From a virus, in the IMG/VR virus record IMGVR_UViG_3300042541_003876, positions 1 to 64,000 of that record: a stretch of DNA of 64,000 nt. The stretch is one strand, 5' to 3'. The notes under the pieces were generated by a model. That model saw nothing but the letters and a program-made list of their open reading frames with translations, did no database searches and was not told the origin of the DNA. The translations under genes and the position numbers were made by a program. Below are positions 12,235 through 15,460 of this stretch, in pieces (positions within the stretch are counted from its first letter, which is position 1; each line of letters opens with the position of its first letter).

Positions 12235-12367
12235 TTTCAAACCTCAATTAAATTTTAAAAAAATGAAAAGATTCGAAAGCTAAGCACAAATGCTCAACCC
12301 TTGATAAAGCCGATTAAAGGAATAAAAGCTAAATTTACCACGTCTGCCCAGCTTTTGGTAAGCCGAT

Positions 12368-13044
12368 GTTACAGGCAGGTGTGGGTTAATTTAAAACGAA
12401 TATCAAAATGATACAAATTACAAACGCTGTTGAAAGATACGGCAAACTTATTATTAACGAACTAAAAGAAGCTAATATTAATTGTTGGATTGCTGGCGGT
12501 GCTTTGCGTGATTATTTCGCTGGGGTAAAAGTAAACACAGACTATGATTTATTTTTTCCTAATGAAATTGAATACGAAAAAGCAAAAGTATATTTCAAAG
12601 CAAAAGAATGTACGGTTAAATGGGAAAGTGATAATGGAATGAAAATAGTTTACAATGGCAAAACATTTGACTTGGTAAAAAAGTTTTTTGCAACTCCAAA
12701 AGAAACTATTGATGCCTTTGATTTTACTGTATCAATGTTTGCAGTAGATACTGAAAATGTTTATTATGGTGAAACTACATTTATGGACTTGGCTAAAAGG
12801 CAATTAATGATAAACAAGATTACTTACCCTGCTTCAACTATGAGCCGAGCTTTTCGTTATTACAAAAAAGGATTTTCAATGTGTTTAGGCGAAATGAAAA
12901 AACTTGTTGAAGCTATACAAGATATGCAAAAACCTGAACCAAAAAACGAAGAACAAAGTCAAAATGAAGAAGAAAAGTCAAGTGGTGATGATTTAGCGTT
13001 TTTTGTCGGCATTGATTAGCAGGGTGCTAACACTTGCCTGTAAC
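12368..13044 (+). mobile_element. Integron-like gene cassette A (nucleotidyltransferase)
   Basis: Left end GTTacaggcaggtgt (12368-12382) is the reverse complement (14/15) of right end acacttgcctgtAAC (13030-13044). A partial attC arm lies to the left (12284-12367). Confidence 0.75.
12408..13019 (+). CDS. Nucleotidyltransferase, CCA-adding/poly(A) polymerase head-domain type
   Basis: WIAGGALRDY...TDYDLFF (GGxxRD...DxD) and FDFTVS. Confidence 0.85.
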   Translation: MIQITNAVERYGKLIINELKEANINCWIAGGALRDYFAGVKVNTDYDLFFPNEIEYEKAKVYFKAKECTVKWESDNGMKIVYNGKTFDLVKKFFATPKETIDAFDFTVSMFAVDTENVYYGETTFMDLAKRQLMINKITYPASTMSRAFRYYKKGFSMCLGEMKKLVEAIQDMQKPEPKNEEQSQNEEEKSSGDDLAFFVGID

Positions 13045-13085
13045 TCGTGCATTTGCGCAACTTTAATAAAAAAATAAAAATATGA
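13041..13085. repeat. 45-bp repeat (attI-like site plus translation leader), copy 1
   Basis: taactcgtgcatttgcgcaactttaataaaaaaataaaaatATGa; also at 13472, 14143 and, partially, 15374. Confidence 0.9.
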
Positions 13086-13462
13086 ATAAAATTAAAAATT
13101 TCAATACAATGCGAAAAATAGAAGTAAAAATCAGACAAATTATTTGGGCTTTCAAACAATCATTAAAGCCTACAACTTATGACCTTGTTATTTATCAAGG
13201 CAAACAGTATTTTATTAAATCAAGTCTTACTAGGGAAAATGTTTGGAATCTTTTTGAAAAAGGAGAAAAAGAGCCAACGCACAGATACATTAAAGGTAAA
13301 GAATTGAAAGTTTTTCAATCAGTAAAACGATTTATTAATGTTTTCAAAAATCATTTAAGATTCCAAAAGAAAAGCTGGGACTTGATTGATTGTGGCAATC
13401 CAATTGGCACAAGGCTGTCTTACAATAATTCAGAGGATATCTATTTTGGGAGGTGGTTCTAA
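13082..13462 (+). CDS. Hypothetical protein (cassette B, left end lost)
   Basis: 126-aa ORF followed by attgccactAAC and repeat copy 2; first 7 codons identical to the ORF at 14184. Confidence 0.7.
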   Translation: MNKIKNFNTMRKIEVKIRQIIWAFKQSLKPTTYDLVIYQGKQYFIKSSLTRENVWNLFEKGEKEPTHRYIKGKELKVFQSVKRFINVFKNHLRFQKKSWDLIDCGNPIGTRLSYNNSEDIYFGRWF

Positions 13463-13471
13463 CATTGCCAC

Positions 13472-13516
13472 TAACTCGTGCATTTGCGTAACTTTAATAA
13501 AAAAATAAAAATATGA
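13472..13516. repeat. 45-bp repeat, copy 2
   Basis: One mismatch relative to copy 1. Confidence 0.9.
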
Positions 13517-13569
13517 GCATATTTAACCAAGACTTTTACCCAACTCCAGAAAATATAATTGCACAAATG
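13513..13569 (+). pseudogene. Truncated 5' end of a probable N6-adenine methyltransferase-like gene
   Basis: MSIFNQDFYPTPENIIAQM (the DFYPTP motif is typical of N6-MTase/DUF4942-like N-termini), then runs into attC-like sequence. Confidence 0.5.
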
Positions 13570-13628
13570 CCGATTAGGATTACAAAAGTTGAGGGTTATT
13601 ACCTCCGCCCCAATTTAACAAATACCTT

Positions 13629-14146
13629 GTTATCTGCATCTGCGGTTTTCAAGGCAGGAAGTTTCAAATTATTCACTAATAAATTAAAATAAAATGTCAG
13701 AAATTAAAGAACAAACAATGTTTGAAGAAATGAGAAAAAAAGGAAGTAGTATTCCTGATAAAGTAGAATATCTACAAGCCAATGGTTGGCAATGCTATAA
13801 TCATCACGACAACTGGGTTAAATCTACTTGGTCGGACACGGAAAAAGACGGTTCATTATTAGATTTAAACAAAGCATTTGAGCAATGCGTAAAAGAGCAA
13901 ATTGTTTTACAAGAAGCAATTAAAACACTATGCAATGCGTTGAAAGAAGATAAAGGGTTATATATCGCTTACCAAGCTAATATTGCTATGGCTTTCCAAG
14001 ATGAGTTTAATATACAGTCAGAAAAGCACGAAATGTTTACAAAGTGGTTAATGTTGGAAGGTGGATTGTACACAATAGCTAATAATGCAAGTCATAATTT
14101 CCTAAAACTTTTAATGCCGTAGGGTGGTAGCAGTTGCGCAGATAAC
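13629..14146 (+). mobile_element. Integron-like gene cassette C
   Basis: Left GTTatctgc (13629) is complementary to right gcagatAAC (14138-14146); partial attC arm at 13561-13628. Confidence 0.7.
13694..14122 (+). CDS. Hypothetical protein
   Basis: 142-aa ORF filling cassette C. Confidence 0.75.
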   Translation: MSEIKEQTMFEEMRKKGSSIPDKVEYLQANGWQCYNHHDNWVKSTWSDTEKDGSLLDLNKAFEQCVKEQIVLQEAIKTLCNALKEDKGLYIAYQANIAMAFQDEFNIQSEKHEMFTKWLMLEGGLYTIANNASHNFLKLLMP

Positions 14147-14187
14147 TCGTTTATTTGCGCAACTTTAATAAAAAAATAAAAATATGA
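14143..14187. repeat. 45-bp repeat, copy 3
   Basis: Two mismatches relative to copy 1. Confidence 0.9.
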
Positions 14188-14306
14188 ATAAAATTAAAAA
14201 TTTCTTTAAAGTGTTATTTTGCTCACACGAATATAGAGTAGCAAAATTTAATCATCGTTTTTACCAATGTAAAAAGTGTCAATACATAAAACAAAGAAGT
14301 ATATGA
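14184..14306 (+). CDS. Small putative zinc-binding protein, 40 aa (not in the ORF track)
   Basis: [40 protein letters not shown], with CxH...CxxC; ATGA overlap with the next gene. Confidence 0.65.
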
Positions 14307-14854
14307 AAACAAAAATTTTCTTCGACACAGAATTTACAGGATTGCACCAAAATACAACTCTAATTTCAATTGGATTAATTTCAGAATGTGGAAAAACTTT
14401 CTATGCTGAATTAACCGATTATGATAAAAGTCAAATTGACGATTGGTTGCAAAAAAATGTAATTGATAATTTAAAATTTAAAGATGAATTAAGTACACGT
14501 GTATTTTGGAATGATGGTGTAAATACAGAAATGTTTGGTGATACAGAAATGCTTAAAATGTTATTAAGAAAATGGTTAGAACAATTTGAAAGTATTGAAA
14601 TATGGTCTGATTGCCTTTCTTATGACTGGGTACTCTTTAATCAAATTTTCGGACACGCTTTTAATATTCCTGAAAATGTCTATTATATTCCATTTGATAT
14701 TTGCACTTTGTTTTATGCAAAAGGAATTGATGCAGATATTAGTCGTGAAGCGTTTGCGGAAATGTCAGAAGGTAGTCAAAAACACAATGCTTTGTGGGAT
14801 GCAAAGGTTATTCGTCAATGTTTTAACAATTTACAAGGTGTTGCTGTAAAATAG
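14303..14854 (+). CDS. DEDDh 3'-5' exoribonuclease (Rv2179c/DUF5051-like)
   Basis: [32 protein letters not shown]. Confidence 0.85.
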
Positions 14855-15023
14855 CCGATACTGTTAAATCTTTCATATTTTCAAATTTTGTTGAAAAGTA
14901 TTTATGTTTCCCTCATAAATAAGGGAAACAATCTGCAACTTAATGTATATCAATAACTTTAGTGGTCTTAAAACAGGCTGCAAACATATAGAATTAGAAA
15001 GTGCTAACGTCTGTTAAGATTGT

Positions 15024-15120
15024 CACTAACTGTTCTAGGCTTGGCGTTAGTGCTACCTTGCACGAACTTTGAATTTAGCACTAAACTATCTGGTGGCATT
15101 ACGCCAAACCCGTGTTATAG
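15024..15120 (-). mobile_element. Complete attC-like site
   Basis: cactAAC...ggcttggcgttagtgctacc / ggtggcattacgccaaacc...GTTatag; the arms pair with one bulged base; shares ttagcactaaac with the site at 6844. Confidence 0.75.
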
Positions 15121-15377
15121 GATAGTTTTATTTTTGTGGGTTGGCAATAAATAAATTTCAATTATGAGTAAATGGTTAGACAAAGAGGTTAAACAGCTAA
15201 TGATGTATGTAGAAGCATCAGATGATAAAACAATGGAAGAGCTTTATGAATATGTTCACCACATGATGTATAAAGAAGGTAATCATCCAGATTTTCCAGT
15301 TAGAACATTGTCGGCTGTAACTGCTAAAATTCGTAAATTTTGTCGGGAGCTTGGAAAAAAATAAAATTTCCTACAAC
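15114..15377 (+). mobile_element. Integron-like gene cassette D
   Basis: Left GTTataggatagttttatttt versus right aaaataaaatttcctacAAC (reverse complement gttgtaggaaattttatttt); followed by repeat copy 4. Confidence 0.7.
15164..15364 (+). CDS. Small hypothetical protein (Myb/SANT-like helical pattern possible)
   Basis: KWLDKEVKQL...RTLSAVTAKI; fills cassette D. Confidence 0.65.
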   Translation: MSKWLDKEVKQLMMYVEASDDKTMEELYEYVHHMMYKEGNHPDFPVRTLSAVTAKIRKFCRELGKK

Positions 15378-15460
15378 TCGTGCATTGGCGCGACTTTAAA
15401 TGTAATTAACTGATTATAAGCGCATATAAATTGCGTATTTTAAATATTAAAAAAAATAAA

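Follow-up and report, generated by a model that had tools for sequence, protein, structure and literature searches.

Can a phage genome that encodes no recombinase of its own nevertheless hold genes in the way an integron holds its cassettes? The question is raised by positions 12284-15400 of IMG/VR record IMGVR_UViG_3300042541_003876, a lake-water phage of Bacteroidota-type bacteria whose genome measures 77.7 kb (~98% complete) and of which positions 1 to 64,000 are called the window below. This cassette stretch sits within the rightward early/replication arm of the genome, and a preliminary description made from the letters alone had seen in it three genes (A, C and D), each bracketed by its own pair of complementary ends that run from GTT to AAC, and a fourth (B) with the AAC end only; these ends and their coordinates all hold (Table 1). 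We read the stretch as a partly decayed integron-like cassette array whose hairpin sites belong to a family common to Bacteroidota chromosomes and phages, and we put the probability of this reading at roughly 0.7.

What ties each gene to its flanks is the complementarity of its arms. Arm pair A was not equalled in any of 2000 shuffles of the upstream region and pair C in only 7 of 2000, while pair D fared weakly in the ungapped version of this test (81/2000 as good), its gapped alignment (~35 nt) extending beyond AAC into the repeat that follows. Of the flanks of gene B only the AAC-side arm is left (TAACATTGCCACTAAC, 13460-13475); the 5' arm is gone, and so is the gene's own site. That such ends are specific to their cassettes, as the preliminary description held, is true of their complementarity but not of all their sequence, since what stands left of AAC is in part a degenerate continuation of the repeat (GGGTGnTAACAnTTGCC) that covers the stop codons.

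The same bracketing is found far beyond this phage. A metagenome scan with the repeat recovered two contigs, one from the same phage (L006, see below) and one from a different phage (L007), whose small genes are all bracketed likewise. A family motif derived from the latter (CCACTTTTKGCAATNNNNTGTTA) could be traced in IMG/VR to at least 114 phage contigs and, among genome sequences, to 45 contigs that are nearly all from Bacteroidota. Among 90 non-redundant cases, the 14 nt from GTTA find their reverse complement (with no more than 2 mismatches) 140-1400 nt downstream, ending in TAAC, in 73, against 2/90 for the control with reversed arms. Nearly all of these pairs have exactly one mismatch, at a fixed position and with G opposite T, as does arm A of the window. 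The view that complementary GTT and AAC ends are the footprint of cassettes is thus borne out, and for a widespread family.

The sites themselves are of constant build. In 88 non-redundant complete copies the length is 144-147 nt including 10-nt arms (a TAAC...GTTA hairpin of 124-127 nt), and the order is arm, TAAC, 6-nt spacer, ATTGCCGAAGGTGGGG, a conserved loop of ~70 nt, CCCCACTTTTGGCAAT, 4 variable nt, TGTTA and second arm. A leader lies in the conserved loop, often together with an ATG, and several subfamilies have a reading frame that passes through L' and R' (..ETPTFGNxLLxAV..). A consensus fold of 36 copies (RNAalifold) has 22 pairs, four with compensatory changes (GC 20 / AU 15; GC 25 / CG 11) and three that are invariant G.U. 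With TAACG and TGTTA ends, an asymmetric internal loop and a 17-bp stem that carries compensatory changes in this fold, the family has the architecture of attC sites. Two other readings were ruled out: a conserved N-terminal peptide tag (ETPTFGNxLLxAV) as the cause of conservation, as one large subfamily translates these nucleotides in a different frame, and a high-copy element resembling repetitive extragenic palindromes (REP), as each bacterial genome has only 1-2 near-exact copies.

Within the stretch, the complete and half hairpins that had been reported left of each GTT are recovered by folding and by nhmmer. The site before gene D (15017-15127) is the sole foldable, or complete, one (fold z -2.76) and matches the covariance model weakly (26 bits, E 0.013; cmsearch). 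Before genes A and C stand right halves, of which the one at 12282-12379 matches model positions 45-145 only (nhmmer, E<1e-4; cmsearch gives 23 bits and E 0.055 for 12251-12381). The sole complete canonical site that the covariance model finds in the whole genome lies outside the stretch, at 6838-6983. It has TTAGCACTAAAC in common with the loop of the site before gene D and is 86% identical to a site of the unrelated contig L007; it comes with neither a 3' arm for the downstream gene nor a 5' arm for gene 6983-7384.

Similarity between shared cassettes breaks at the core, as the preliminary description led one to expect. Gene B is 90% identical in DNA to contig L086 over 13096-13475, the match ending exactly at ..CACTAAC, and in L086 the gene is flanked on either side by a complete site. 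A copy of gene A that is 97% identical stands in L212, and on the right the similarity ends exactly at ..CTGTAAC. This copy is preceded by a complete site (92.6 bits), of which the window retains the right part only, from a 9-nt motif (GCACAAATG) onward. The truncated sites before A and C both start at this motif, the latter meeting there the stub of a methyltransferase gene, which suggests that GCACAAATG is a recurrent short-homology deletion point within the loop. Homologs of gene A in other phages occur with and without arms: one that is 72% identical (L219) has a different arm pair, which is again self-complementary, and more distant ones have none. Complementary ends and breaks at the core are what a crossover at G|TT would leave behind; they resolve the core, though not the single nucleotide.

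As to the enzyme, no integrase had been in view, and a search of the 98%-complete genome (PF00589 included) found neither a tyrosine nor a serine recombinase, nor any homolog of the short phage enzymes described below. The proposal that a host or another phage supplies a tyrosine recombinase gains support in that relatives of such enzymes lie beside arrays in Bacteroidota and in a few phages. In five Bacteroidota genomes, the best TIGR02249-like genes adjoin sites. One Pedobacter chromosome has a divergent recombinase gene, then an open reading frame (ORF), a site, two ORFs and a second site, and a Hydrotalea metagenome-assembled genome has three sites and co-oriented genes after the recombinase. 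When the 30 best homolog loci from a sample of 300 Bacteroidota genomes were scanned over 1.5 kb on each side, 10 had a site, usually immediately 3' to the gene. This linkage emerged on scanning recombinase loci; the contigs of the first five chromosomal site copies held no IntI-type recombinase. The array-linked bacterial enzymes (373-385 aa, with an N-terminal extension of ~100 aa) fall just below the cut-off of the XerA/integron-integrase model. They match TIGR02249 with 192-194 bits (cut-off 265) and in two pieces, model positions 178-237 being skipped, so that the IntI-specific insert region is absent and the enzyme is Xer-like rather than that of a classical integron. Three phages carry Xer-like tyrosine recombinases beside arrays (Table 1), with 139-153 bits against TIGR02249 and 38-49% identity to the Pedobacter array-linked enzyme in the catalytic half. 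An integrase with the IntI-specific domain, by which a classical integron is recognised, was not found, and an assignment of the locus to that class has to be given up.

Phages and chromosomes differ in how genes are oriented to these sites. In phages the ORF between adjacent sites is sense in 75 intervals and antisense in 0, whereas in the chromosomal copies genes are sense on the opposite strand (antisense to the phage-site orientation), and reading that strand gives the classical cassette logic, TTA-arm..gene..arm-TAAC-site-G. Phage cassettes are therefore flipped relative to the bacterial arrays, with the site travelling before the gene, in agreement with the earlier idea of inverted-ORF cassettes. 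The same polarity might also speak for a role at the RNA level, in which hairpins and bracketing stems would shape a polycistronic mRNA (processing, stability, control of translation start in the loop) and likeness to recombination sites would be secondary. Wherever the pairing is non-canonical, at three positions of the hairpin and one of the bracket, it is an invariant G.U on the sense strand, and this strand folds better than its complement in 35-36 of the 36 sites whether RNA or DNA parameters are used; besides, the loop bears leader and ATG, and the frame runs through L' and R' in several subfamilies. However, bacterial arrays contain these sites as well, next to tyrosine recombinases and with the genes on the opposite strand, the similarity of shared cassettes stops exactly at TAAC, and most stems in the window are incomplete while the genes are intact. 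So to our minds a role in RNA seems unlikely to be what the sites are mainly for in phages, albeit it could coexist with one in DNA.

If the hairpins are one partner in recombination, the other may be the repeat that follows each AAC. As had been noted before, it is the same one every time: the complete 77.7-kb sequence contains AACTCGTGCATTTGCGCAACTTTAA exactly four times, always on the + strand (at 13042, 13473, 14144 and 15375; chance expectation none), and every copy is followed by an AT-rich leader and an ATG. The copies align with the R''-L'' side of a site only (TAAC-TCGTGCATTTGCGCAAC versus TAAC-GTTTTGCAGATTGCCGAAG) and resemble a class of non-hairpin sequences found after the last TAAC of arrays at many loci; judged by this alignment, they are double-stranded, attI-like half sites. 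The stretch thus holds one foldable site, two right halves without their left half, four left-half attI-like sites and no integrase. The exact repeat pattern has no match in viral contigs, and an N4-type hairpin promoter was ruled out for it (no suitable stem, and one copy loses the stem).

Contigs of four lake-water metagenomes pile up on 12989-13111 and 14144-14213, where their summed depth is 10-30 times that of the flanks, with 80-155x for the repeat bin and 2-10x elsewhere. Lake contigs depart from the window right after ATGAATAAAATTAAAAATTTC / ..AAAAATTTC (AAATTTC) and take at least three other continuations, so that the acceptor-plus-leader module is common to many genomes of those lakes. 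The junction after ATGAATAAAATTAAAAATTTC is recurrent and gives different ORFs the same first seven codons.

From these findings, a path to the present array may be envisaged. A complete unit is a ~125-nt site and then a gene, with an arm of ~14 nt behind the gene that is complementary to the 14 nt from GTTA, and crossover would take place in the GTTA/TAAC core, probably of a site folded from a single strand. In a flipped phage gene the site stands in front, and its loop provides a leader and in many cases a start codon too. The enzyme, probably a Xer-like tyrosine recombinase that lacks the IntI insert, is not encoded in the phage and would have to be supplied by its host or by another element infecting at the same time. 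All four cassettes, each presumably inserted into an acceptor, run up to an attI-like half site to which a translation leader is fused (four copies). Deletions at short homologies, two of them at GCACAAATG and one at AAATTTC, would later have removed the left halves of the A and C sites and the whole B site; most of the array would thereby be frozen, and present-day gain and loss would go via ordinary homologous recombination between direct repeats. The two genes at 14184-14854 have no arms and hence are not cassettes. Genes A-D may serve accessory or counter-defence roles.

Recent gene loss of this last kind can be seen in L006, which is the same phage (99.6% identity) without ~13103-14190 (gene B, a chimeric stub ORF and gene C) and joins repeat copy 1 to copy 3. 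This is the one empty or alternatively filled allele found, of the kind that the preliminary description proposed to look for, but its crossover lies within 52 nt of direct-repeat identity rather than at G|TT, so that ordinary homologous recombination is sufficient. This raises the option that no site-specific recombination is involved at all and that conserved intergenic repeats (terminator, promoter, leader) merely give homology for modular shuffling by general recombination. The PeSL promoter-stem-loop cassettes of T4-type phages, for which Arbiol et al. in 2010 reportedly proposed modular gene shuffling, would be the precedent: there too, a plastic early region holds small accessory genes that are each flanked by a repeated regulatory element, and exchange occurs between repeats as it does between L006 and the window. 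Gene loss between direct intergenic repeats with a crossover in common sequence, the 7-nt microhomology at which gene B meets the repeat leader, and the many same-lake contigs that share the repeat and depart right after AAATTTC are all in line with such shuffling. It leaves unexplained, however, why arms are complementary across each gene yet differ between cassettes, why a palindromic architecture of 124-127 nt with covarying stems is kept constant, why similarity breaks at TAAC where the flanks have no homology, and why the sites are linked to a dedicated recombinase; PeSL cassettes, for their part, have no TAAC/GTTA-bounded palindromes, no cassette-specific complementary ends and no recombinase linkage. 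As the whole explanation, we rate shuffling by homology as distinctly unlikely.

Very unlikely indeed is a small transposon-like unit, or one like the pdif modules that Blackwell and Hall are said to have treated in 2017, made of a gene and inverted arms whose GTTA-arms are double-stranded binding sites with no hairpin: the bracketing inverted repeats do have conserved outer (L'/L'') and variable inner parts, the associated enzyme is Xer-like and the L''/L' covariation could mirror site subfamilies instead of pairing, but the right site of a unit is always separated from the next left site by a constant distance within one 125-nt element, the two halves show fixed G/A differences that give a consistent strand asymmetry, no transposase and no target duplications were seen, and inverted double-stranded sites would invert rather than excise.

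Arrays of this kind in phages have been met before, although the preliminary description knew of no such case for crAss-like phages. Qi et al. 2023 reported clusters of attC sites lacking integrases (CALINs) in virulent phages, among them Polaribacter phage P12002L with a site of the present family (PMC9892861). One of its sites, P12002L_attC1, is a compact hairpin detected by HattCI only, and the terminal junction of the array (attC2) recombined with IntI1 on the bottom strand only and was cut at G|TTAGGC (PMC9892861), which is the core position inferred in our analysis. The authors took the divergent site directions as mosaicism and made no tie to a Bacteroidota recombinase (PMC9892861). The P12002L cluster belongs to a phage of a Flavobacteriia host and, like our array, has cassettes (there of methyltransferases) between TAAC...GTTA hairpins, and the attC1 loop TCGTTTTAATG is the loop after cassette arms in the long-site arrays L050, L070 and L108. 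In a parallel to the acceptor repeat, a sequence without a hairpin is repeated in that phage: attC2 is found twice in contig L176 (P12002L), at 29120-29270 and 37170-37330, - strand, each time directly after the last TAAC of a cassette row. Unlike our sites, those of P12002L are compact (55 nt) and are not scored by the long-form model.

Classical integrons share with the family imperfect palindromic sites that start with ..TAAC and end with GTTA, R- and L-type boxes, an asymmetric spacer and a variable loop; they share complementary cassette starts and ends, single-gene cassettes in arrays and the existence of integrase-free clusters. The family differs from them in a recombinase without the IntI insert, in fixed sites of ~125 nt with a conserved loop and in a complementary arm of ~14 nt instead of 7, and its phage members also in flipped genes for which the loop serves as leader. 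Folding of a comparable kind is reportedly used by the CTX phage, whose attP(+) was described by Val et al. in 2005 as a folded single-stranded site used by XerCD. There a ~150-nt hairpin in single-stranded DNA likewise presents a site to Xer-type recombinases; unlike here, the whole phage integrates at dif, not gene cassettes, and there is no sequence relation. Similar in layout are the rAID-1 clusters, which Ross et al. (2019, 10.1101/471110) described from more than half of the Bacteroidales and in which a XerD-like tyrosine recombinase heads co-directional small genes with repetitive intergenic sequences 'reminiscent of integrons' (10.1101/471110). Most Bacteroidota loci with our sites match it as far as layout goes; unlike them, rAID-1 was described for gut Bacteroidales and immunity genes with no phage role, and the window lacks the recombinase that stands at the 5' end of such clusters. 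Full-text literature searches found no paper that joins phage CALINs, Bacteroidota sites and rAID-1.

Several observations weigh against a decayed cassette array as we propose it. The phage encodes no recombinase, only one site within the stretch can fold, and four junctions are half sites. The left junction of gene B is formed by the repeat leader at the microhomology AAATTTC and not by a core site, and L006, the sole allele difference seen, has its crossover right of TAAC. One arm pair brackets many different genes, which a pure model of ends moving along with their gene would not predict, and all non-Watson-Crick pairs being G.U on the strand of the phage mRNA would fit an RNA role too. In the one published test of a hairpin belonging to the family, IntI1 failed to recombine P12002L_attC1, the sole failure among six sites (PMC9892861). 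We found no published demonstration of recombination by the Xer-like enzyme. Contigs from the four lake metagenomes show neither cassette-skipping joints nor circle junctions but, being short and of low depth, weigh on neither side.

Beyond the locus, the family may represent a separate, IntI-independent analogue of integrons in Bacteroidota and their phages, an option we hold to be an even bet. A Xer-like recombinase would act on a fixed, folded site of ~125 nt; in phages this site would be turned round to serve as a promoter-proximal leader, start codon and sometimes N-terminus, and phages would not only draw on the cassette pool but also carry it. In the phage studied here the site would have been domesticated into the four-copy acceptor-plus-leader repeat that is also found in many other lake phages. 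Were a Xer-like enzyme indeed to move cassettes, gene capture through folded sites would not be tied to IntI, lytic phages would use and spread a pool shared with their hosts, and a recombination site could double as an expression leader. IntegronFinder 2.0 lists a single complete integron in Bacteroidetes proper, that of Salinibacter ruber (PMC9024848), yet the present site family is common in Bacteroidota chromosomes and occurs in more than 100 phage contigs. In other phages the pool consists mostly of DNA methyltransferases, here of a nucleotidyltransferase and small genes of no known family. The system lends itself to direct testing, since intact arrays are found in isolates, namely the hemulen and stinky groups of Flavobacterium phages and Polaribacter phage P12002L, while the window itself offers a picture of array decay followed by reshuffling through ordinary homologous recombination.

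Table 1. Sites, arms, repeat copies and genes of the cassette stretch, with related features elsewhere
Feature	Position	Strand	Description
Truncated site before gene A	12282-12382	+	Loop, L' (CCCAGCTTTTGGTAAGCC), R' core TGTTA and 15-nt arm a' (12368-12382) kept; R'' and L'' gone
Arm pair A	GTTACAGGCAGGTGT 12368-12382 / ACACTTGCCTGTAAC 13030-13044	+	15 nt, 14/15 complementary, one G.T; right arm ends in R''-type core TAAC
Gene A	12408-13019	+	PolyA_pol/CCA-type nucleotidyltransferase, 203 aa; phrog_4400 5e-27, phrog_1614 nucleotidyltransferase, PF01743 weak
Repeat copy 1	13042-13111	+	Core AAC, TCGTGCATTTGCGCAAC (L''-like half site, attI-like), AT-rich leader, ATGAATAAAATTAAAAATTTC
Gene B	13082-13462, with 3' arm to 13475	+	126 aa as listed; no family
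Repeat copy 2	13473-13516	+	Exact AACTCGTGCATTTGCGCAACTTTAA copy
Chimeric ORF	13513-13692	+	DNA methyltransferase N-terminus stub (MSIFNQDFYPTPENIIAQM) joined at GCACAAATG to 5'-truncated site 13559-13638
Truncated site before gene C	13559-13638	+	Model positions 64-143 only (nhmmer, E<1e-4); ends in R' TGTTA and arm GTTATCTGC
Arm pair C	GTTATCTGC 13629-13637 / GCAGATAAC 14138-14146	+	
Gene C	13694-14122, with 3' arm to 14146	+	142 aa; no family
Repeat copy 3	14144-14213	+	92% identical to copy 1 across 71 nt, first seven codons included
Two arm-free genes	14184-14854	+	40-aa Cys-rich ORF, then Rv2179c-like 3'-5' exoribonuclease (14306-14854)
Site before gene D	15017-15134	+	CACTAAC 15024-15030, 20-bp imperfect stem, TGTTA 15113-15117, arm a' 15114-15134
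Arm pair D	15114-15134 / 15358-15377	+	Pairing needs an indel; right arm ends in AAC at 15377
Gene D	15164-15364, with 3' arm to 15377	+	66 aa; no family
Repeat copy 4	15375-15460	+	Terminal site of array; next 60 nt common to array end of unrelated phage contig L007
Complete canonical site	6838-6983	-	Outside stretch, behind gene 6983-7384 (-), near GroEL-like gene; 127 bits, E 2e-24
Phage Xer-like tyrosine recombinases	L219 2536-3336; L113 212-1012 (-); L040 4612-5463		Beside arrays, 266-283 aa

As for the genes of the stretch, the original start of gene B is probably the ATG at 13109, and gene C has no relatives among viral contigs. Residues 2-23 of the chimeric ORF match phrog_31814 weakly, its methyltransferase-like part being the first 19 residues (..DFYPTPE..), and residues 16-57 match the element region of contig L044 (tblastn). 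The arm-free pair is matched by phrog_4188, PF16473 (2e-12) and phrog_2259 (2e-57). A neighbouring helicase-methylase gene has a single relative (36% identical), the upstream region of which is unrelated. Scans of the window for tRNA genes and Rfam families gave no matches, and megablast of the stretch against GenBank phages gave none either. The virion module contains an ORF of 3963 aa (36377-48268, -) that matches no PHROG and no PDB sequence, those of the N4 and phi14:2 virion RNA polymerases included, so that neither a crAss-like nor an N4-like assignment of the phage is supported.

Some further features concern expression and the surroundings of the array. Reading the sequences, we noticed inside the element a candidate Bacteroidota -33/-7 promoter (TTG..18-19 nt..CACTTTTG). 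The ~60 nt past the terminal site (15400-15460), with a small palindrome (ACGCATATAAATTGCGT), are kept in L007 (3640-3700) despite different downstream genes and may be a promoter or operator. Directly past the array, gene 15461-16276 consists in part of ~19 tandem 24-nt (8-aa) repeats, and the N-terminus of its product (MDTPQEKIEKYKSK) is paralogous to that of the product of gene 6983-7384 (-) (MKTPQEKIEKYEAK). The GroEL-like chaperonin near the canonical site is encoded at 4781-6487 (-; phrog_5725, 1.5e-128), and one metagenome contig links the region upstream of gene 6983-7384 to position 15456.

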